Shown here piece by piece: positions 42,016-64,000 of a stretch of DNA of 64,000 nucleotides. Position numbers and translations under genes: made by a program. Origin of the DNA: Mustelus asterias. Taxonomy: Eukaryota. The stretch is taken from contig NW_027590293.1 of NCBI RefSeq assembly GCF_964213995.1, forward strand, positions 248,001 to 312,000, read 5' to 3'. Every line of letters starts with the position of its first letter. Within the stretch, counting starts at the first letter, position 1. Under the pieces are notes generated by a model. That model saw nothing but the letters and a program-made list of their open reading frames with translations. It had not been told where the DNA came from and did no database searches.

Positions 42016-42046
42016 CTCTCTGAATGAAGATTGAGCTTCAGACAGA
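42016..42046 (+). other. Empty copy of the Tx1 target site / ZNF exon-1 remnant
   Basis: ctctctgaATGaagattgagcttcagacaga. Its last 29 nt are the exact reverse complement of 53890-53918. Confidence 0.85.
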
Positions 42047-49959: not shown

Positions 49960-50468
49960 GTAGAAAGGATGTGATTGCACTGGAGGGGGTGCAGAGGAGA
50001 TTCACCAGGATGTTGCCTGGGATGGAGCAGCCGAGCTATAAAGAGAGATTAGATAGACTTGGATTGTTTTCTTGAGAGCAGAGAAGGCTGAGGGGGGACA
50101 TGATTGAGGTGTATAAGATTGTGAGGGGTTTGGACAGGGTGGATAGGAAGCAGCTGTTCCCCTTAGTTGAAGGGTCAATAACGAGGGGGCATCATTTTAA
50201 GGTGAGGGGCAGGAGGTTTTGGGGGTTTGAGGAAAAATGTTTTCACCCAGAGGGTGGTGGGAGTCTGGAATTCACTGTCTGGGAGGGCAGTGGAGGCGGG
50301 AAACCTCACAACCTTTAAAAAGCACATGGATGAGCACTTGAATGTTTTGACAGTTCAAACACCATCAGCCAAGTGCTGGAAAATGGATTAGTGTAAATTT
50401 AGTATAGTTTTGTCAGTACAGACCCGATGGGCTGAAAGGCCTCTTCTGTACTGTATGACTCTATGACT
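49960..50468 (+). mobile_element. CR1 LINE 3' fragment converging on a ZNF 3' end
   Basis: IEVYKIVRGLDRVD; its (ctatgact)n tail overlaps the ZNF stop codon. Confidence 0.8.
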
Positions 50469-50970
50469 TGTGAATTCGCTGGTGTTTCTGCAGTCGGGAT
50501 GAATGAGTGAATCCCTTCCCACACACTGTGCAGGTGAATGGCCTCTCCCCAGTGTGAACCCGCTGGTGTGTCCGCAGGCCTGATGGCACACTGAATCCTT
50601 TCCCACACACAGAGCAGGAGAACGGCCTCTCCCCAGTGTGAACTTGCTGGTGTCGCCACAGGCTTGATGGCACACTGAATCCTTTCCCACACACAGAGCA
50701 GATGAATGGTCTCTCCCCAGTGTGAACTCGCTGGTGTCTCCGCAGGGTGGATAACTGAGTGAATCCTTTCCCACACACAGAGCAAGTGAACGATTTCTCC
50801 CTGGTGTGAATTCGCTGATGCCTCTGCAAATCAATTATCTGAGTGAATCCCTTCCCACACACAGAGCAGGTGAACGGCCTCTCCCCAGTGTGACTGCGCC
50901 GATGAATCTCCAGCTGAGATGGGAAACTGAATCCTTTCCCACAGTCCCCACATTTCCACGGTTTCTCCAT
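50461..50970 (-). CDS. C2H2 zinc-finger protein, 6 fingers (host gene of the Tx1 insertion)
   Basis: MEKPWKC...; paralog of 7-828 with the same first two and last fingers. Acceptor tttgcag|GATAAC at 51320. Confidence 0.88.
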   Translation of the reverse strand: MEKPWKCGDCGKGFSFPSQLEIHRRSHTGERPFTCSVCGKGFTQIIDLQRHQRIHTREKSFTCSVCGKGFTQLSTLRRHQRVHTGERPFICSVCGKGFSVPSSLWRHQQVHTGERPFSCSVCGKGFSVPSGLRTHQRVHTGERPFTCTVCGKGFTHSSRLQKHQRIHKS

Positions 50971-51811
50971 GGTGCGGGTGTCCTTGTCACTCTCCAGGTT
51001 AAACAATCAGTTAAATCTCACACAGAACACGGATACAGTCTCTCCCCGCTGTGAATGCTGCGATGTATTTTCAGGCGGTGGAACTGGTGAAAGCTCTTTC
51101 CACACTCAGTGCATTGGAACACTCTCACTCGGGTGTATCTGTGTCTTGGTGCTTTTTCAGTCACATTTATGTCAAAAAAATTCTGAAGCAGACAGAACAG
51201 AAAAAGATTTCTCCTTCTAGATTCAATGATATTCAGATCCCGATCAATCAAATGACTGTCAGATTTAGATGTGACATTTGGTTTGAGATTTCTGCCTGTA
51301 AATCCTCACCTTCTGTTATCCTGCAAAAGCAGATTACAAAAGTCATCACTGTCAGTACAGGATAGAAATTCAGAACGACATTTCCTTGTTTTAAGTTCAT
51401 TCATTAGTCACAAGTAAGGCTTACATTAACACTGCAATGAAGTCACTGTGAAATTCCGCTAGTTGCAGCAGTCGGGCGCCTGTTGGGAACAATGCATCGA
51501 ACCAGCACGTCTTTCAGAATTCTAGTTTCTATGGAAACTTCTTTCCTCTCTCATTCCCCAAAAGCTGTGACTCTCCATCCCACACACTCTCCCTCCATTC
51601 TCACTCTGCTGTATCTAATATTCATCCTCCCAATTCTCCTGAAGGTGCTGATTGAGGCTGGTTGACAGATCCATGCTCACTGCTTCCTGTCCTGGACACA
51701 GAGAGCTGGAAATCTCCATGCAGGCTGCCAGACAGATATATGTCTATCTGACTGGACTAACAATGTGTGGAATGTACAGACTGGACTCACTCGCTTTCCC
51801 TTCAGTGGCTA

Positions 51812-53650: not shown

Positions 53651-53859
53651 TCAGTTCCTGCAAGACAACAATTTCCCCAGAAAGTGTTACATTTGGACAT
53701 AAATGAGTAGACTAATGTGTGAATACACTGGTTAGAGAGACATGAAGAATGCGAGGAGGATTTTTATTTCGGCAGCGAGTGGTGACCTGGAAGTTAAAAA
53801 TTCAACTCCAGAATAAGAGAAGAAATGGAAAGGGGGAGAAAAGAAAGTGTTTTACTCAC

Positions 53860-53918
53860 AGATGTTGGAGAGACAGAAGGAAGTTTGAGTCTGTCTGAAG
53901 CTCAATCTTCATTCAGAG
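53860..53918 (-). other. Putative ZNF exon 1 (MKIELQTDSNFLLSLQH, phase-2 donor) containing the target-site duplication
   Basis: ATG at 53912-53910, then 17 codons plus 2 nt, then GTGAGT. The intron start matches 18906-18955 and 23971-24000. Confidence 0.6.
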
Positions 53919-54046
53919 ACCTCTTTTTAGGTCAAACCAAGTAAACAAACTCAAATTAAATCAGGACAAAGTAAAAGGGGCAGCTCCCCAAAAAGGAGGG
54001 GGAACAGCCCGAACAGAAATCAAAATGCAAAGGAAACTTAAAAACA

Positions 54047-57000
54047 TCAAATTAAAATGTGATTATTAGGGTCAATAATGCACCCCAACCCCTGCGGTGC
54101 CCAGCGGGCGCGGAAAGCGTCAACCTCGCCCGTGGACACCGCATGCTCCCTCTCCAGGGACACCTGGCCGCGAACGTAGCCGCGGTAGAGGGGAAGACAG
54201 TCAGGATGGACGGCCCCCTCGATCGCCCGCTGCCTGGACCGGTAAATGGCGCGTTTCGCCAGGCCCAGGAGCAGGTTCACGAGGAGGTCGCCATCCCGAC
54301 CCTCCCCTCTCCGCACCGGGTGTCCGTAGATCAGGAGCGTGGGACTGAAGTGCAAACAAAACATCAATAAAAGATTCTTCAGGAAAACATAAAGGGAGTG
54401 CAGCCTAAGACACTCAACATAGACATGGTCCACGGACTCCACAAGGCCACAGAAAGGGCAGTCTTCGGAGCCCGTGAACCAGTGAATCCTACGGTTGTGC
54501 GGAACTGCTGCATGCATCACCCTCCACCCCAGGTCCCCGACGTAATTGGGGGAGATCCCTCCGTAGAGGGACCTCCAGCGGGGACCTCCGCCGCCCGGCG
54601 GCAACAAGGCCCGCCAAGGTGTATCCGGGCGACAGGCGAGGAGGCGGTAGTGGAAGGTGTGCAGCAGCAGCCCGCACAGGAAACGCCTCCGCGCGGTAGA
54701 AAAAGGCACGGAGGGCATTTCCGCGAGGCGGCTCAGGCTGTGGGGCACCTCACCCAGGGGAGGGGGCTGAGGCTTTGGGCCAATGTGGAATTCCGCCCGA
54801 ACAGGGGAACGCTCGGGCGGGATCCCACCGCACGCCTGTGCCGTCTCAAGTTTGCGTGCAGTTTCGGGGCCGAGCACGACCGTCCTAAGGTCTAGGATGG
54901 CTTTGGCCGCGCGCCGGACGGACGTCCCCGCGCGCTCAGCCAGCACGCGGGGACTCATCCAGCCCGCTCCTCCGCCATCGAGCACGTCCCCGATTCTGGT
55001 CACCCCGGCGTCCACAGCCCCCCTCTCCGCCAGCCACCTGAAGTTATACGGCTGGAGGAGCGGATTCCTGAGCAGCGGCTCTCGCACGAGAGCCGCTACT
55101 CCTGACGGGGGAGAGCTGCGTCGCGAGGCGACCTTGTTCCAGACAGTGAGGAGGTCCTGGTAAAAGACGGGCAACTCCTGCAGGGTGGTCGAAGCACGCC
55201 CCAGTTCGATATGCAGGAGCTGCACGTCATAATTGAGGCCGTGCCACTGGCGGAAGAAATACGTCGCCATGGCACACCACTGTGGAGGGGGCTCAACGTA
55301 AAGGTACCTCTGCAGGGCCTGGAGGCGGAAGGTCGCTATCTGAGTGCGGAGGCACACCAGACCTTGTCCGCCCTCCTCAAGCGGGAGATACAGGACCGCA
55401 GCAGGGACCCAGTGCAGTCGATTGCCCCAGAAGAACCGCACGAGGGTTCTCTGGATATCGGTGACAAAGCCAGGGGGAGGGGTCAAAGGGACCAGCCGGT
55501 ACCACAGCATGGAGGCGACCAGCTGGTTTATGACGCGAGCTCGCGCCCCGTAGGACAGCACTCGGAGCAGTCCTGTCCAGCGACCCAGGCGGGCGGAGAC
55601 TTTGGCCTCCAGCTCCCGCCAGTTCGCCGGCCAGGATTCCTCGGCTGGGCAGAGATGGGCCCCCAAGTAGAGGAGGTCGGTCCTGCTCCAGGTGAAAGGC
55701 CTGAGCTCCTCCGGAAGGGGGTCCGTCTCCCAAGGACCGACAAGGAGTCCGGAGCACTTGGCCCAGTTGATCCTGGCGGAGGACGCGGCGGAGTACACCG
55801 CCTGGCATTCTCGCATCCTCCGCAGGTCAGCCGGGTCCGTGAACATGAGGAGCACGTCGTCGGCGTAAGCTGACAGGACCACCCCTACGTCCGGTCCGCG
55901 CAGGACCAAACCTGACAACCTCCTCCGCAAGAGGCGCAGGAATGGCTCCACGCATACGGAATACAGTTGGCCGGACAAGGGGCAGCCCTGCCGTACTCCT
56001 CTCCCGAAGCGAAGGGGCGCCGTCAGGGACCCGTTAACCTTAATCACACACTCTGCGGCAGAGTACAGTAATCGGATCCGGGCGACAAAATGCGTCCCGA
56101 ACCCGAATGCCCGCAGAGTCCCGAGTAAATACTCGTGCTCCACCCTGTCGAACGCCTTCTCCTGATCTAATGACAAGAAGGCGCCCGACAGACCAGCCCT
56201 CTGGGTGTGATGGATTAGGTCCCAGACCAGGTGGAGATTGTCATGTATGCAACGGCCCGGGACCGTGTAGGACTGGTCAGGGTGGATCAAGTGGTCCAGC
56301 ACGGATCCAAGGCGTGAAGCCATAGCCCTGGCAAAGATTTTATAATCCGTGCTGAGGAGGGAGACCGGGCGCCAGTTCTTGAGCAGGTGGAGATCCCCCT
56401 TCTTGGGCAGCAGGGCAATGACGGCCCTGCGCCACGAAAGGGGCATCTCCCCGGTAGCGACGCTCTCCCCCAGGACCCCCGCGTAGTCGCTCCCCAGGAC
56501 GTCCCAGAACGCCCTGAAGAACTCTACTGTCAGCCCGTCCAGCCCAGGGGCCTTGCCCCGGCTGAGGCCATTTAGGGCGCCGGTCAGCTCGGCCATGGTG
56601 GTAGGGGCCTCGAGCCTGCCGACGCCCTCCGGGCCGACCTGCGGCAGGTCCTCCCACAGAAGTCTGCGGGCATCCTCGCTGGACGGATCCGGAGAGAAGA
56701 GCGAGGTGTAATACTCCCGGGCAATGGCCCGGATGCCCTCCGGATCCGAGACGGGGGAACCGTCGTCGGCCAGCAGCGTAAGGAGCTGCTGACGGTTAGC
56801 CCGCCCTCTTTCCAGCGAGTAGAAGAAGGGGGAGCCGCGGTCCAGGTCCACCTGGAACTGGAGCCGCGACCTCACGTACGCGCCGCGAGACCTGGCAAGC
56901 TGCAGGTCCCGCAGCGCGTCCTTCTTCTCCCTGTACTCCGAACGCAGGGCCGGGTCCGCGTCAGGCCGACTGAGACGTGCCTCCAGGTCGAGCACCTCCT

Positions 57001-57940
57001 TCTCCAACTCCTCGAGCCTGGATTTCCGCCTCTTTGTCGACCCCCTCGCGTACCCCTGACAGAAGGTACGGACGTGAGTCTTGCCCACATCCCACCAGAG
57101 CCTCAAGGAGGGGAAGCCTCCCCGCTTCCTTCTCCAGCCGGCCCAGAATCGACGGAACGAGTCCAGGAAGCGCTCGTCCTCCAGCAGCGTGTTGTTAAAG
57201 TGCCAGTACGCGGACCCCCGCCGGATGCGAGACGGCGCAAAGTCCGCCCACACCAGGCTGTGGTCCGTGCTCGACACCGGCCGCATGGAGACCGAGGACA
57301 CGCCGGACACGTGCGCCTTCGAAATGTAAAGGCGGTCGAGCCTGGACGCTCCGACTCCAGGCCTCACGAAAGTGAAGGCGCTGGAGCCAGGATGGAGATG
57401 TCTCCAGACGTCCACCAAGTCGTGAGACCCGATCAGGTCCCGCAACTTCACCACCGCCGGAGTGCGCAGCCAGGGGCCGGTGCGGTCCCGTGCCTCGAGG
57501 ATGCAGTTGAAATCTCCCCCGAGGATAATGCATTCGCCCCCCGCGATGGTGTCGATGTGAGCGGACACTTTCTCGTAGAAAGTCGTTTGCTGCGGTCCAG
57601 CGGTCGGGGCGTAGACATTCAGCAAGTGAATGACCACGCCCCCCTCACGGACCGTCAAGTGCAGCAACCGGCCTGGCACCGGCTCCTTGACCCCCAAGAT
57701 CTCCGGCTTATAACGCGGGGCCAACAAGATAGCCACCCCGCAAGAAGCGAGCGTGAGGTGGCTCATGTAGACCCCCCCTCGCCACTCCAGGAGCCATTGG
57801 GCTTCGTCTCCCGGAACGGTGTGGGTTTCCTGCAGGAAACACACCGCATACTTCCCGTCACGGAGGACCGAGAAGTTCTGGAACCTGCGGTGTGGCCCAC
57901 TGCTGCCGTTGATGTTGAGGCTGGCTATGGTCACCTTCAT
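54047..57940 (-). CDS. Tx1 ORF2: APE endonuclease, reverse transcriptase and C-terminal Cys/His finger
   Basis: SLNING, LQETH, GGDFN, SRLDR, TDH (APE); NWRPVSLL, LDQEKAFD, GVRQGCPLS, YADD (RT); CPFC-x7-H-x4-C. 1297 aa uninterrupted. Confidence 0.95.
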   Translation of the reverse strand: MKVTIASLNINGSSGPHRRFQNFSVLRDGKYAVCFLQETHTVPGDEAQWLLEWRGGVYMSHLTLASCGVAILLAPRYKPEILGVKEPVPGRLLHLTVREGGVVIHLLNVYAPTAGPQQTTFYEKVSAHIDTIAGGECIILGGDFNCILEARDRTGPWLRTPAVVKLRDLIGSHDLVDVWRHLHPGSSAFTFVRPGVGASRLDRLYISKAHVSGVSSVSMRPVSSTDHSLVWADFAPSRIRRGSAYWHFNNTLLEDERFLDSFRRFWAGWRRKRGGFPSLRLWWDVGKTHVRTFCQGYARGSTKRRKSRLEELEKEVLDLEARLSRPDADPALRSEYREKKDALRDLQLARSRGAYVRSRLQFQVDLDRGSPFFYSLERGRANRQQLLTLLADDGSPVSDPEGIRAIAREYYTSLFSPDPSSEDARRLLWEDLPQVGPEGVGRLEAPTTMAELTGALNGLSRGKAPGLDGLTVEFFRAFWDVLGSDYAGVLGESVATGEMPLSWRRAVIALLPKKGDLHLLKNWRPVSLLSTDYKIFARAMASRLGSVLDHLIHPDQSYTVPGRCIHDNLHLVWDLIHHTQRAGLSGAFLSLDQEKAFDRVEHEYLLGTLRAFGFGTHFVARIRLLYSAAECVIKVNGSLTAPLRFGRGVRQGCPLSGQLYSVCVEPFLRLLRRRLSGLVLRGPDVGVVLSAYADDVLLMFTDPADLRRMRECQAVYSAASSARINWAKCSGLLVGPWETDPLPEELRPFTWSRTDLLYLGAHLCPAEESWPANWRELEAKVSARLGRWTGLLRVLSYGARARVINQLVASMLWYRLVPLTPPPGFVTDIQRTLVRFFWGNRLHWVPAAVLYLPLEEGGQGLVCLRTQIATFRLQALQRYLYVEPPPQWCAMATYFFRQWHGLNYDVQLLHIELGRASTTLQELPVFYQDLLTVWNKVASRRSSPPSGVAALVREPLLRNPLLQPYNFRWLAERGAVDAGVTRIGDVLDGGGAGWMSPRVLAERAGTSVRRAAKAILDLRTVVLGPETARKLETAQACGGIPPERSPVRAEFHIGPKPQPPPLGEVPHSLSRLAEMPSVPFSTARRRFLCGLLLHTFHYRLLACRPDTPWRALLPPGGGGPRWRSLYGGISPNYVGDLGWRVMHAAVPHNRRIHWFTGSEDCPFCGLVESVDHVYVECLRLHSLYVFLKNLLLMFCLHFSPTLLIYGHPVRRGEGRDGDLLVNLLLGLAKRAIYRSRQRAIEGAVHPDCLPLYRGYVRGQVSLEREHAVSTGEVDAFRARWAPQGLGCIIDPNNHILI

Positions 57941-57968
57941 GTCAGCAGCTTTGTGCCACCGTCACCAC

Positions 57969-60068
57969 TTAACTAGGTGTGTGGGGGGGCGCTGGCGCAA
58001 TTCTCACCAGTCCACCCCCCACCTTTTCGAGCCTGTGGAGGAACCGCAGTACCCAGCGCCGCTCTATTTTCTCCAGGCCCGCGGAGGCATGCGAGCATGC
58101 CTTCACGGACCGGACGAGCTGCGCCAGGTCCGGCCAGCGGCCGAGGGCTAGCCGGATTATGTCGGAGCGACCGGAATGGTTACGGATAAAGACCCTGAGG
58201 TCCTTGGAGGGGATGAGGGACGACTCGGTGGGGGGCACGAGGGAGTCCCCCGCCTCGCTCTGGGCAGACTCTGAAAGTGTCCCCGTGCCCTCCACCGAGC
58301 CGCTGACCTCCTCAGGGCGGTCGCCCCTCGACTCCGAGTCCCCCGCCGCAGGACGTACGGCGGGCGGCACGGAGCCACCAACTAGCCCTAGCCCCTCCCC
58401 GATCCCACCCCCAGGATCGGTGGAGGAGGGGTTCCCCCCGGGCTCACCTTTCCCGGATTGCGGGCCCCCGTGCGACGGCGGCCCAGCCCCCCCCCCCGCC
58501 CCAGACGCTTGGACACCCCCCAGGTCCGGTGTATCCTTCGGACTGAGGTTGGGGATGTCCAGCGTCCAAGGTCGGGACGGAGAGGACGAGTGGATCGTCT
58601 CTTCGCCGCCGCCGCACGAGGACATGAACATTGGAGTGTCGCCCCAGTCCCCCGACAGACTGAAGAAGAACTCCGGGTTGTAACCGGCCGGGTGGAACGG
58701 AACCGTGGGGGCCCCGCTGCCAACCGGCCCCGGAGACTCCTCGCCGGGGGACTGAGGCAACACATGCTTGGATTTACAGGGTGCCTTGCCCCCTTTTTTC
58801 TGGGGACAAGGCACAAAGACAGGTGGGGGCACGGCAGGAGATGACTCACAAGGGGGGAGGGGCACGCAGACCTCGAACTCTACGGTGCCCGAGGGGCCCC
58901 GCCTCTTTTTGTTAACCTGCCCTCGGGCAGGCGAGGCCCCTCGCCCTCCGCCCCTCTTCGCCTTGCCGCGCCCCCCCTGCTCTCCCGTCACTTCCCCCCG
59001 AGGTGGCGGCGTCGCCAGTTTTGCCGGCTCGGGGTCGCTTACCCCCCCATGCTCGGGCCCATGATCCCGGGCGCCGGACCCAGCACTAGGCCCCGGAGAG
59101 CCCACGGGCCCGGCAGATGGTGGTGGTGGTGGTGGGGGGGGGGCGCAGGTGGAGACTGAGGCGGTCCCCGAGCCGGCTGCCGGGGTGGTCGGGGTGTTTT
59201 CCCTGGGGGCCGGGGTTCCGGTACCCCCCTTCTTTTTTGTAGGTCCCTTATGGGCCTTTTGGCCGCGCGGGGGCTCCGCTCCCCCCCCGCCGGCAGCTGA
59301 GGTGGCAGCTGCTGCCGGCGTGGCCTCCCCTCGCGGGGGAGCAGATGGTACTCGCTTGGGGGGAGAGGGGGCTGCGGTGCCAGCTGCGGCCGCCTTGGGT
59401 TGGTGGTCGGCGGCCTTGGAGACGGGGCAGTTTTTCCGCACGTGCCCCGCCTCCTTACAGGCATGGCACCGCACACCGTCCGCGGACCAAAAGACCCGGT
59501 ACGTGGTCCCCTCGTGGGGGACATTGAACCCTCCCTCCAGTTCCTCCTCCCGGGCCAGGCGGACAAAAACCTGGCGCCGGAAGGAGTATATGTGGCGGAG
59601 GGAGGGGTCCCGAAGGCCGAGCGGGATCGGCTGCACCCCGGACCTGACCTCCCCCAGTAGATGGAGGTGGGGGAGGAGGAGCTCACTCGGTAGGAAGGGC
59701 GGGACGTTCGATATTACTATCTTGTGGGCGGTGGCCTCCAATGGGTCCACCGCCAGGAACGTCCCGCCCACCGTGAGCCCCCTCTCCAGGGCGAGGCGAA
59801 CCGCCCGCTCGGCCTTCAGGAAGAATACGGCCCGGCCGGACATCTTTGAGGCCGCGACAATGGCTGAGGGGCCGACAACCCCAGCCATTGCCTTGACGCA
59901 GGCCTCGATAGACATGTCGGGGTGGGCGTAGCACTTCACCCCGAGCTGCCGCGTGATTAAAGAGAATGGCGGCAGGGCCTTGGGAGCGGCGGGGGCTCTG
60001 GCAGCCGCCACGCCCGCATAGGTGGGCCGAGAAGGCCCTGCCACCGGCGACGCTGGTGATGTCGCCAT
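57969..60068 (-). CDS. Tx1 ORF1: RNA-binding domain with a CCHC knuckle and a long Pro/Gly-rich tail
   Basis: From the in-frame ATG (MATSPAS...): IVAASKM..RAVFFL, KIVISNVPPF, SFRRQVFV and CHACKEAGHVRKNC, typical of Tx1 ORF1. 699 aa. Confidence 0.88.
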   Translation of the reverse strand: MATSPASPVAGPSRPTYAGVAAARAPAAPKALPPFSLITRQLGVKCYAHPDMSIEACVKAMAGVVGPSAIVAASKMSGRAVFFLKAERAVRLALERGLTVGGTFLAVDPLEATAHKIVISNVPPFLPSELLLPHLHLLGEVRSGVQPIPLGLRDPSLRHIYSFRRQVFVRLAREEELEGGFNVPHEGTTYRVFWSADGVRCHACKEAGHVRKNCPVSKAADHQPKAAAAGTAAPSPPKRVPSAPPRGEATPAAAATSAAGGGGAEPPRGQKAHKGPTKKKGGTGTPAPRENTPTTPAAGSGTASVSTCAPPPPPPPPSAGPVGSPGPSAGSGARDHGPEHGGVSDPEPAKLATPPPRGEVTGEQGGRGKAKRGGGRGASPARGQVNKKRRGPSGTVEFEVCVPLPPCESSPAVPPPVFVPCPQKKGGKAPCKSKHVLPQSPGEESPGPVGSGAPTVPFHPAGYNPEFFFSLSGDWGDTPMFMSSCGGGEETIHSSSPSRPWTLDIPNLSPKDTPDLGGVQASGAGGGAGPPSHGGPQSGKGEPGGNPSSTDPGGGIGEGLGLVGGSVPPAVRPAAGDSESRGDRPEEVSGSVEGTGTLSESAQSEAGDSLVPPTESSLIPSKDLRVFIRNHSGRSDIIRLALGRWPDLAQLVRSVKACSHASAGLEKIERRWVLRFLHRLEKVGGGLVRIAPAPPHTPS

Positions 60069-60459
60069 GGTATCAGGGGAAGTGCTACACCCACCCCGAG
60101 ACTGCCCAGATGCACGGCAGGGCGTATATGTGGAGGGAAAGATAAGGGAGGGTGGGGTAGGTGGGTAGGGGTGTAGGTGTTCTCTCCCCGGAGCGAGAGA
60201 GGGAGAGAGGAGGTCGGAGCAGTAGGAGGGAGAACGAGGCACAAGGCCGGTGCCCCAGTCAGGAGGGAAAGGGGAGGGGGTGCACCAATCGTGGGGACAG
60301 CAGCAGTGGGTAGGGGAATTAGGAAAAAGGTCTTCACCCCCCCCCACTGCAGATGGAAAAGAGACAGTCCAAACGCCTTCGCCCCCCCCTCTCCTCCAGT
60401 CACTCCCTGTCCTCTCTTCCTCCCTCCCCCCGGGGAGAGCGCAACCTCCAGAGGCCGGA

Positions 60460-61265
60460 TGGCAGGCATGCAGGCAGTCAGGCAGTCCAGACGGCAGGCA
60501 GGCCGGACGGCAAGCAGGCAGGCAGGTAGTCCAGACGGCAGGCAGCCCAGACGGCAGGCAGGTAGTCCAGACAGCAGGCAGGCAGGTAAGCAGGCCAGAC
60601 GGCAGGCAGGCAGGTAAGCAGGCCAGACGGCAGGCAGGCAGGTAAGCAGGCCAGACGGCAGGCAGGTAAGCAGGCCAGACGGCAGGCAGGCAGGTAAGCA
60701 GGCCAGACGGCAGGCAGGCAGGTAAGCAGGCCAGACGGCAGGCAGGCAGGTAAGCAGGCCAGACGGCAGGCAGGCAGGTAAGCAGGCCAGACGGCAGGCA
60801 GGCAGGTAAGCAGGCCAGACGGCAGGCAGGTAAGCAGGCCAGACGGCAGGCAGGCAGGTAAGCAGGCCAGACGGCAGGCGGGCAGGTAAGCAGGCCAGAC
60901 GGCAGGCGGGCAGGTAAGCAGGCCAGACGGCAGGCAGGCAGGTAAGCAGGCCAGACGGCAGGCAGGCAGGTAAGCAGGCCAGACGGCAGGCAGGCAGGTA
61001 AGCAGGCCAGACGGCAGGCAGGCAGGTAAGCAGGCCAGACGGCAGGCAGGCAGGTAAGCAGGCCAGACGGCAGGCAGGCAGGTAAGCAGGCCAGACGGCA
61101 GGCAGGCAGGTAAGCAGGCCAGACGGCAGGCAGGCAGGTAAGCAGGCCAGACGGCAGGCAGGCAGGTAAGCAGACCAGACGGCAGGCAGGCAGGTAAGCA
61201 GGCCAGACGGCAGGCAGGCAGGTAAGCAGGCCAGACGGCAGGCAGGCAGGCAACAGGCAGGCCGG
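60460..61265. repeat. 28-bp tandem repeat array in the Tx1 5' UTR (~25 units)
   Basis: Unit ggcaggcaggcaggtaagcaggccagac, with occasional 24-bp variants and degenerate ends. Confidence 0.95.
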
Positions 61266-61570
61266 GCAAGGCAGGCAGCAGCTCACCTCCCTCCTTCCTC
61301 CCCGCAGGGAGCGAAAAACAAACAAACCCAACAAAACAAAAACAAAAACCGGGCGTCTCCGTGAGCAAAAACGAGAGAAAAAAAATAAAATAAAGGTACT
61401 CACAAAAAAAGAAAAGAAAACAAACCCACAGTTTCCGCCCGGCTCCGACCCGGGGCCCCCCGCTACTCGGGCGAACGTGAACTCACCCCACCCCGGAAAC
61501 AAAGTGCAGGCGCTGCCCCAGAGGAGGGACGTTTCAGGCCGCCTGAAGCTCAATCTTCATTCAGAGAGAG

Positions 61571-64000
61571 ACCTCTTTTTAGGTCAAACCAAGTAAACAA
61601 ACTCAAATTAAATCAGGACAAAGTAAAAGGGGCAGCTCCCCAAAAAGGAGGGGGAACAGCCCGAACAGAAATCAAAATGCAAAGGAAACTTAAAAAAAAC
61701 ATCAAATTAAAATGTGGTTATTAGGGTCAATAATGCACCCCAACCCCTGCGGTGCCCAGCGGGCGCGGAAAGCGTCAGCCTCGCCCGTGGACACCGCATG
61801 CTCCCTCTCCAGGGACACCTGGCCGCGAACGTAGCCGCGGTAGAGGGGAAGACAGTCAGGATGGACGGCCCCCTCGATCGCCCGCTGCCTGGACCGGTAA
61901 ATGGCGCGTTTTGCCAGGCCCAGGAGCAGGTTCACGAGGAGGTCGCCATCCCGACCCTCCCCTCTCCGCACCGGGTGTCCGTAGATCAGGAGCGTGGGAC
62001 TGAAGTGCAAACAAAACATCAATAAAAGGTTCTTCAGGAAAACATAAAGGGAGTGCAGCCTAAGACACTCAACATAGACATGGTCCACGGACTCCACAAG
62101 GCCACAGAAAGGGCAGTCTTCGGAGCCCGTGAACCAGTGAATCCTACGGTTGTGCGGAACTGCTGCATGCATCACCCTCCACCCCAGGTCCCCGACGTAA
62201 TTGGGGGAGATCCCTCCGTAGAGGGACCTCCAGCGGGGACCTCCGCCGCCCGGCGGCAACAAGGCCCGCCAAGGTGTATCCGGGCGACAGGCGAGGAGGC
62301 GGTAGTGGAAGGTGTGCAGCAGCAGCCCGCACAGGAAACGCCTCCGCGCGGTAGAAAAAGGCACGGAGGGCATTTCCGCGAGGCGGCTCAGGCTGTGGGG
62401 CACCTCACCCAGGGGAGGGGGCTGAGGCTTTGGGCCAATGTGGAATTCCGCCCGAACAGGGGAACGCTCGGGCGGGATCCCACCGCACGCCTGCGCCGTC
62501 TCAAGTTTGCGTGCAGTTTCGGGGCCGAGCACGACCGTCCTAAGGTCTAGGATGGCTTTGGCCGCGCGCCGGACGGACGTCCCCGCGCGCTCAGCCAGCA
62601 CGCGGGGACTCATCCAGCCCGCTCCTCCGCCATCGAGCACGTCCCCGATTCTGGTCACCCCGGCGTCCACAGCCCCCCTCTCCGCCAGCCACCTGAAGTT
62701 ATACGGCTGGAGGAGCGGATTCCTGAGCAGCGGCTCTCGCACGAGAGCCGCTACTCCTGACGGGGGAGAGCTGCGTCGCGAGGCGACCTTGTTCCAGACA
62801 GTGAGGAGGTCCTGGTAAAAGACGGGCAACTCCTGCAGGGTGGTCGAAGCACGCCCCAGTTCGATATGCAGGAGCTGCACGTCATAATTGAGGCCGTGCC
62901 ACTGGCGGAAGAAATACGTCGCCATGGCACACCACTGTGGAGGGGGCTCAACGTAAAGGTACCTCTGCAGGGCCTGGAGGCGGAAGGTCGCTATCTGAGT
63001 GCGGAGGCACACCAGACCTTGTCCGCCCTCCTCAAGCGGGAGATACAGGACCGCAGCAGGGACCCAGTGCAGTCGATTGTCTCAGAAGAACCGCACGAGG
63101 GTTCTCTGGATATCGGTGACAAAGCCAGGGGGAGGGGTCAAAGGGACCAGCCGGTACCACAGCATGGAGGCGACCAGCTGGTTTATGACGCGAGCTCGCG
63201 CCCCGTAGGACAGCACTCGGAGCAGTCCTGTCCAGCGACTCAGGCGGGCGGAGACTTTGGCCTCCAGCTCCCGCCAGTTGGCCGGCCAGGATTCCTCGGC
63301 TGGGCAGAGATGGGCCCCCAAGTAGAGGAGGTCGGTCCTGCTCCAGGTGAAAGGCCTGAGCTCCTCCGGGAGGGGGTCCGTCTCCCAAGGACCGACAAGG
63401 AGTCCGGAGCACTTGGCCCAGTTGATCCTGGCGGAGGACGCGGCGGAGTACACCGCCTGGCATTCTCGCATCCTCCGCAGGTCAGCCGGGTCCGTGAACA
63501 TGAGGAGCACGTCGTCGGCGTAAGCTGACAGGACCACCCCTACGTCCGGTCCGCGCAGGACCAAACCTGACAACCTCCTCCGCAAGAGGCGCAGGAATGG
63601 CTCCACGCATACGGAATACAGTTGGCCGGACAAGGGGCAGCCCTGCCGTACTCCTCTCCCGAAGCGAAGGGGCGCCGTCAGGGACCCGTTAACCTTAATC
63701 AGACACTCTGCGGCAGAGTACAGTAATCGGATCCGGGCGACAAAATGCGTCCCGAACCCGAATGCCCGCAGAGTCCCGAGTAAATACTCGTGCTCCACCC
63801 TGTCAAACGCCTTCTCCTGATCTAATGACAAGAAGGCGCCCGACAGACCAGCCCTCTGGGTGTGATGGATTAGGTCCCGGACCAGGTGGAGATTGTCATG
63901 TATGCAACGGCCCGGGACCGTGTAGGACTGGTCAGGGTGGATCAAGTGGTCCAGCACGGATCCAAGGCGTGAAGCCATAGCCCTGGCAAAGATTTTATAA
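61571..64000 (-). mobile_element. Tx1 copy 2 (3' part; runs beyond the window), ORF2 broken by a nonsense codon
   Basis: Near-identical to 53919-56345. TGG>TGA at 63082-63084 splits ORF2 into the 63082-63978 and 61702-63012 ORFs. Confidence 0.93.

Follow-up and report, generated by a model that had tools for sequence, protein, structure and literature searches.

Two Tx1L-like LINEs stacked head to tail in a zinc-finger gene first exon: probable separate insertions and a probably element-borne copy of the target between them

The DNA analysed here, hereafter the window, is a 64,000-nucleotide stretch of the Mustelus asterias genome (G000:C261:248001-312000) and comprises a C2H2 zinc-finger (ZNF) gene cluster; all genome-wide counts were taken over the 3.68-Gb genome. 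Two full-length LINEs resembling Tx1L of Xenopus lie head to tail on the minus strand, inside exon 1 of a C2H2-ZNF gene (Table 1). Read along the minus strand, the upstream element (copy 2) ends in ...AAAAAGAGG (61575-61572) and is followed by (TC)4, the 21-bp motif TGAATGAAGATTGAGCTTCAG and the remainder of the 5' end of copy 1, whose own 3' end at 53920 matches the copy 2 terminus and is followed by (TC)2 and an identical 21-bp motif (53915-53895). The layout given in the initial annotation, with the copy 2 3' end, a spacer and the copy 1 5' end in that order, is present as described at 61575-61543, as are the one extra ctct between the two junctions (a difference of 4 nt, (TC)4 versus (TC)2) and the scattered substitutions and unequal A-run, the in-window part of copy 2 being 98.95% identical to copy 1 with an A-run that differs by 3 nt. 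A 22-mer at the target matches three times within the window, and any match was obtained in 0 of 100 shuffles. Because the number of TC units at 66 distinct on-target 3' junctions ranges from one to six (two in 27, three in 34, four in three), the extra TCTC is ordinary variation, reflecting the position of the putative nick within the TC tract.

Past position 64000, copy 2 continues at full length to its 5' end at about 68812-68830 (window-extended coordinates), preceded, as had been anticipated, by a third copy of the motif and a ZNF promoter; this motif is a variant that differs from the junction motif at three positions. The sequence upstream of copy 2 was also considered as a second element family, a candidate that was rejected: it is a ZNF promoter subtype.

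Both ORFs of copy 1 are open. In copy 2, ORF1 terminates after 160 residues and ORF2 has a stop at residue 838; over its whole length copy 2 is 98.3% identical to copy 1. The top protein match to ORF2 is Xenopus Tx1 ORF2 (Tx1L), at 48% identity over 100% of the length, and L1-type structures match ORF2 only at E~1e-18, on the EN domain. Partial protein matches come from rays and sharks, which suggests a cartilaginous fish as host. The predicted proteins, an ORF2 with APE and RT domains closest to that of Tx1L and a separate ORF1, place the element in the Tx1 clade of non-LTR retrotransposons, a placement made by similarity to Tx1L-type proteins. Other Tx1-type traits are the upstream position of ORF1, the absence of LTRs, 5' truncation, and repeats of 12-22 bp around truncated copies. 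As ORF2 is open in 31 of 50 near-complete copies, the system is young and should lend itself to assay. Within the 5' UTR, a degenerate tRNA-Val aligns with a score of 84, the best of 1000 shuffles scoring 49. An Rfam scan of 60000-62000 returned no ribozyme family at E<=5, a search that novel ribozymes may escape, and the 5' UTR was rejected as a known RNA family, since its six weak Rfam rows all fall far under the gathering scores and the tRNA relic is not among them. The reading frame of ORF1 has no stop over 1195 codons (57969-61556, minus strand), extending upstream of the likely start at 60068 through the microsatellite and the leader.

Table 1. Features of the stacked elements and their host gene, in window coordinates.
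Feature	Position	Strand	Remarks
Downstream ZNF exon of the gene with the interrupted first exon	50461..51320	-	six C2H2 fingers
Remainder of host exon 1, with older VCAAC site and splice donor	53854..53894	-	donor GT 53855-53854
Host target, (TC)2 and 21-bp motif, start of remaining ZNF exon 1	53895..53919	-	
Copy 1, full-length Tx1L-like LINE, leader motif to 3' end	53920..61563	-	both ORFs open
ORF2, 1296 aa, APE endonuclease and reverse transcriptase	54047..57937	-	PF03372 at 5-226, PF00078 at 511-759
ORF1, 699 aa	57969..60068	-	one CCHC knuckle by eye; Pfam match none
5' UTR microsatellite, 8/28-bp period	60461..61278	-	length unequal between copies
Degenerate tRNA-Val in 5' UTR	61431..61500	-	54/72 identical to ARAGORN-called tRNA-Val of older relative
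Diverged remainder of ZNF exon 1 up to older (+45) site, part of leader	61505..61542	-	score above all 300 shuffles
21-bp ZNF exon-1 motif heading copy 1	61543..61563	-	putative element-borne leader; only first ~10 bp within a 14-16 bp TSD
(TC)4 tract at array junction	61564..61571	-	subfamily TSDs begin at TCTC; putative nick and priming site
Copy 2, 3' part, runs on beyond window	61572..64000	-	private ORF2 stop near 63080
Vacant TC-type target ahead of another ZNF gene	42016..42040	+	

The 21-bp motif has 478 exact matches genome-wide. In the 93 kb around the window there are four host copies, each ahead of a finger array on the same strand, and these account for four of the 13 finger arrays in this interval, the other nine having no upstream motif within five mismatches. 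Because the motif follows CCAAT boxes, lies ahead of a splice donor and is joined to ZNF exons in the spliced (processed) copies found at three of the four dispersed motif loci tested, we assign it to ZNF exon 1, near the predicted start site. One of these copies (L115) joins an exon-1 homolog to the exon starting at 51320. The proposal that the target is part of a ZNF first-exon module is thus borne out by the finger arrays downstream and by the spliced copies. The processed ZNF retrocopies L094, L115 and L116 lie on large contigs and define the exon-1 splice donor.

Two promoter types are found ahead of the motif, a TG type (20 of the 30 loci read) and a TC tract. All 72 distinct full-length 5' ends lie either behind a TC-type promoter (28) or behind another copy (44), a split that comes from a sample enriched for stacks (an unbiased set of 30 loci gave 15 and 13), and none of the 72 lies behind a TG-type promoter, despite 142 exact TG sites. 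Just upstream of copy 2, at window-extended 68830-69212, a divergent ZNF gene pair has about 400 bp between its two motifs, with an element on the TC-type side and none on the TG-type side.

The stack had been taken as the signature of strict site specificity, which the genome-wide counts contradict. Among 189 ends followed by TCTC, 131 meet the motif, a number in which duplicates and a 15-unit micro-array are counted; the other 58 are scattered and, where measured, truncated, with three extending beyond 1.5 kb to ends that were not reached. Strictness of the R1/R2 type, with essentially all copies at one site, is therefore not what these ends display. The TCTC subfamily does exceed the threshold of more than 20% of flanks set by Kojima's rule, as worded in the available part of the source (131/189, duplicates included); pooled with its sister subfamily it falls under that 20%, with at least 180 of 1410. 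The latter figure is the number of ends with the same 3' terminus genome-wide, most of which come from the sister subfamily, with another flank consensus. Seventeen off-target copies have clean TSDs; TSDs start at TCTC, yet most off-target sites are not microsatellites. The idea that all off-target sites begin with TCTC was discarded as an artefact of the search pattern, the unforced pattern having given the 1410 ends and exposed the subfamily with the VCAA flank.

To compare the two copies with the rest of the family, 60 units were extracted, of which 50 near-complete ones were used in a tree and 10 incomplete ones were left out. Copy 1 and copy 2 show 42 differences over 5.8 kb (7.2 substitutions per kb): 26 are alleles segregating among the 48 other copies; of the rest, 14 (one of them the ORF2 stop) occur in copy 2 alone and two in copy 1 alone. 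Copy 2 ranks only 39th of 49 among the relatives of copy 1; copy 1 is the second-nearest relative of copy 2 because it lies near the centre of a star-like tree. Alleles that segregate across the family would be the same in a local duplicate and its parent, so the 26 segregating differences point to separate insertions from different source copies, in agreement with the earlier claim of two insertions at one site. Copy 2 is probably the older, as had also been claimed, judging by its 14 private substitutions versus two (binomial p=0.004), with the caveat that private changes could be inherited from a donor outside the comparison, which took in 50 of about 112 copies. Private substitutions across arrays have no consistent polarity, the upstream copy having more in 8 of 15, and polarised array growth was rejected on this count.

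[quoted passage not shown] At other loci this process does seem to have shaped a minority of the arrays: mutual nearest relatives make up 2 of 15 adjacent pairs and no more, identical truncated copies stand in tandem at at least three loci, an array of 132-bp units exists, and segmental duplication affects ZNF regions, one truncated copy being 98-100% identical, flank included, at all seven loci compared. For the pair in the window we regard it as unlikely, as the family-wide alleles would be unexpected in a local duplicate and exchange between paralogs would need a crossover within about 27-60 bp of homology.

Arrays of this kind proved common genome-wide: 62 of 112 full-length 5' junctions are stacked on another copy, counting segmental duplicates and the 15-unit micro-array, and the longest arrays consist of four consecutive units. 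At two loci, L184 and L200, it can be seen directly that a second copy entered the target behind a first one, as it has true TSDs of 15-16 bp and is flanked on either side by the local motif variant. A junction of the same type is bridged by a contig from a run of another study (X3 record 17), and sequence runs of three other organisms carry the 3' part of the element, with no junction-bridging piece among the matches listed. A retrocopy on contig C3, poly(A)-tailed and flanked by a TSD, holds 201 bp from the 3' end of one element, then the motif, then 116 bp from the 5' end of the following one, indicating that an array has been transcribed by read-through at least once.

That retrocopy lends some plausibility to an origin of the stack in one event, by a template jump in which the reverse transcriptase, having reached the 5' end of one RNA, continued at the 3' end of a second, or by the copying of a read-through dimer RNA; junction read-through RNA has been retrotransposed at least once, and a template jump would yield exactly a 3' end, a TC run and a leader from two donors. 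The private substitutions, however, suggest different ages for the two copies, no sampled array contains the same pair of relatives, and at L184 and L200 the second copy sits behind the first with a local TSD of its own, and we consider a single event improbable.

We then turn to the spacer itself, which could be a TSD or a part of copy 1. Of the 35 truncated copies in which the 5' junction can be seen, 20 are flanked by repeats of at least 10 bp; 14 of these 20 repeats are 14-16 bp long and begin at TCTC, and three of the 20 repeat-flanked copies are on target. Among the on-target truncated copies with a visible 5' junction, 7 of 10 show no TSD, and at C89 a truncated copy on target is flanked by a repeat of 27 bp that spans the whole motif, which indicates that long true TSDs do occur. 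Every full-length copy examined starts with the exon-1 motif, and motif variants follow the element, not the locus: a GAGAATT variant stands directly ahead of the element in 50 of 51 genome matches, a TAGATT variant travels with one 5' UTR haplotype in 11 of 12, and an internal 5' UTR 24-mer has the motif upstream in 69 of 70 matches. In solo full-length copies, the 5' and 3' motifs are identical in only one of 12. In the leader, homology to exon 1 extends ~35 bp past the motif (Table 1). Because the variants track the element and the two motifs are unequal in 11 of 12 solo copies, the motif is best explained as inherited with the element, and we identify the 21-bp motif and the ~35 bp after it as a 5' leader that belongs to the element and was captured from ZNF exon 1. 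A TSD sandwich is seen at the truncated copies of L184 and L200 and not at most full-length copies.

These data weigh on the initial reading of the whole spacer as a TSD left by copy 2 and reused by a strictly site-specific enzyme. The exact match between the spacer and the host motif behind copy 1 speaks in its favour, as do the 27-bp on-target repeat at C89 and the descriptions of SINEU-3 and R1, in the available parts of PMC4494074 and bioRxiv 10.1101/158386, as elements that insert one after another around a TSD. It is difficult to reconcile with the three mismatches between the copy 2 5' motif and the junction motif, with the element-borne leader variants and the unequal motifs of solo copies, with a typical TSD of 14-16 bp and with the 58 of 189 ends that no motif follows; as a general rule it is largely refuted, and for this junction we think it has little chance of being right. 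The spacer here would be mainly copy 1 leader. As the 5' motif of copy 1 is identical to its own 3' host motif, TSD and leader are indistinguishable at this junction, and the first part of the motif may be TSD.

We therefore favour, with a probability of about two in three, separate insertions, probably with copy 2 first, and a spacer that is mostly the leader of copy 1, which likely serves as fresh target and likely aids 5' joining. An assembly artefact, with collapsed or mis-joined haplotypes, is scarcely credible: no independent record was found across this exact locus and many copies lie on small contigs, but the 62 exact junctions come in many variants, the window copies differ at 42 sites, and a junction of the same type is bridged by the other study's contig and another is preserved in the C3 retrocopy.

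If the spacer is mostly leader, the following mechanism can be proposed. The element RNA would be transcribed from the host ZNF promoter and so begin with exon 1. ORF2 would nick at TCTC, reverse transcription would be primed there, and a second cut would be made about 14-16 bp on, after which the finished cDNA would anneal via its leader to the target overhang, as in the R2 heteroduplex model. Each insertion would leave two usable targets, its own leader and the host site behind its tail, and arrays could grow from either side. Leader-target annealing would explain why full-length copies are found only at the motif while truncated copies are scattered, and stacks are likely common because a captured leader would give the next copy a ready landing site. 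The model predicts that 5' ends carry variants of the donor and that full-length copies are confined to the motif, and both predictions agree with what is seen. Co-transcription with the ZNF gene is suggested by the element-borne leader and the C3 retrocopy, and a role of leader annealing in 5' joining is proposed by analogy. The closest mechanistic model is R2 with upstream 28S sequence on its RNA, for which the available text (Eickbush et al. 2013, PMC3774820) describes a cDNA-target heteroduplex model of 5' joining and duplicated target sequence that is inherited as part of the 5' end and decays there. R2 differs in its restriction-like endonuclease, rDNA target and HDV-like ribozyme, the present element having no Rfam ribozyme match. 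With this leader, homology-assisted 5' joining could be tested cleanly in an element other than R2.

The sister subfamily was sampled as 40 dispersed ends, the first listed on C1-C2 with previously examined ends omitted. C occupies the second flank position in 38 of these and A the third in 38; not one of the 40 is followed by the motif, and identity to copy 1 is 91-98% for most of them. This subfamily is more diverged and has the flank consensus VCAA, and the two subfamilies are about 95% alike at the 3' end. The flank follows the haplotype, with 107 of 107 TC-flanked ends copy-1-like and 32 of 36 VCA-flanked ends sister-like, the seven columns that separate the subfamilies having been picked from the same data. 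In exon 1 the sister site lies 45 bp downstream of the motif start (15 of 16 exons), with 49 exact junctions; all seven +45 junctions checked carry sister alleles, several being duplicates, and stacking is present at this site as well. Two 7-kb stretches searched for a full-length sister endonuclease held truncated copies only. Older full-length 5' ends occupy the +45 site at 5 of 30 host motif loci, in the order exon 1, tRNA-Val, microsatellite and ORF1 (85-95% amino-acid identity), and the leader of copy 1 aligns with this older arrangement in the same order, decayed and including the tRNA-Val relic.

The simplest reading of the leader appears to be promoter read-through. A copy at the old VCAA site would have been transcribed from the ZNF promoter, by which the front of exon 1 was added to its 5' end, and the resulting copy would have founded the TC-tract subfamily as the nick preference moved from VCAA to TCTC. 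More broadly, though we put this at slightly under even odds, the element may be a LINE with a long-term niche in ZNF exon 1, which borrows ZNF promoters, carries a mimic of its target, inserts at full length only with homology, has shifted its nick 45 bp upstream from VCAA to TCTC, and keeps the old site, its duplication and a tRNA-Val relic in the leader.

ARAGORN calls tRNA-Val genes within or just behind ZNF exon 1 at L108:1563-1635, L121:1388-1462 and L183:261-333; those in L108, L120 and L121 are flanked by +45-site repeats and are part of older Tx1 5' ends. The first exon of the divergent ZNF gene (L031:6250-6420, window-extended 69250-69420) holds a tRNA-like fragment, presumably Phe (ARAGORN made no call), that ends in AAAGAGG, the terminal sequence of the element, at the +45 site, which suggests that the sister subfamily inserted a cellular RNA here in trans.

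Tx1L generates a TSD of 23 bp, against about 14-16 bp here. Its preferred site in X. laevis lies inside another repeated sequence, Tx1D, according to the available text of PMC1950540 and PMC4494074. The present element resembles Tx1L in its two ORFs, its APE and RT domains, an ORF2 48% identical and a preferred site in repeated sequence; it differs in that its target is the first exon of protein-coding ZNF genes, in its many truncated off-target copies and in its flank consensus, TCTC here and, from the same partial sources, AGTT downstream of the nick in Tx1L. For SINEU-3 and Tx1-Mar of crocodilians, tandem insertions driven by Tx1 and sandwiching a TSD were read as sequential, and transcription from the flanking target sequence was proposed (Kojima 2015, PMC4494074); the target in that case is a Mariner transposon, and the available parts of that paper mention no element-borne target copy. 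In the same text, Kibi and Koshi of the Tx1 clade target (TC)n and (TTC)n microsatellites. Like Kibi, the present element inserts at TC repeats, but these are short tracts used mainly ahead of the ZNF motif, and its sister uses VCAA. Head-to-tail dimers made by double insertion, sometimes expanded by unequal exchange, are described for R1 and many Drosophila elements in the part of McGurk and Barbash (bioRxiv 10.1101/158386) available, with R1 units separated by identical rDNA duplications, whereas the spacer here varies with the downstream element; double insertion into head-to-tail arrays is also known for Utopia, in the accessible text of PMC4640811.

As far as the accessible parts of PMC4494074, PMC4640811, PMC8869645 and PMC1950540 go, target-specific elements insert into RNA genes, microsatellites and transposons, and the niche described here is instead exon 1 across a large family of protein-coding genes. 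The literature searched contained no account of a Tx1 family that inserts into ZNF exon 1; Repbase, Kojima and Fujiwara 2004, Christensen 2000 and supplements lay outside that search and may name it. The main text of a shark genomics preprint (10.1101/2025.06.08.657570) mentions neither Tx1 nor zinc finger. Stacking itself is already known; the novelty would lie in the ZNF exon-1 target class, the element-borne target mimic and the site shift; the target and the shift had no match in the literature searched. The two subfamilies, with their unlike flank consensus, form a natural pair for studying how an APE endonuclease changes specificity. Because C2H2-ZNF clusters contain the genes best known for transposon repression (the KRAB-ZNFs of tetrapods), insertion into C2H2-ZNF genes may matter for host control of transposons.

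Several arrays have further structure. The same 1.1-kb truncated copy with a CpG-rich flank, 98-100% identical, is found at L145, L146, L147, L168, L176, L178 and L181, in each case followed by a full-length copy from a differing part of the tree, which points to repeated stacking at duplicated sites or to conversion. The 1.1-kb copy was considered as a non-autonomous family and rejected, its flanks being 98-100% identical over up to 2.3 kb compared, which fits segmental duplication. Nine last-in-array copies (L145, L159, L161, L165, L167, L173, L175, L180 and L182) break internally into unrelated sequence. A copy of about 96% identity with a shared internal deletion is on target at at least six loci (L128, L185, L188, L196, L197 and L203), a recurrence that is probably segmental duplication. 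At L183 (G000:C89:2431000-2434500), a 104-bp truncated copy and a 27-bp target repeat have expanded to about 20 copies of a 132-bp unit, a nascent satellite within the first exon of a ZNF gene.
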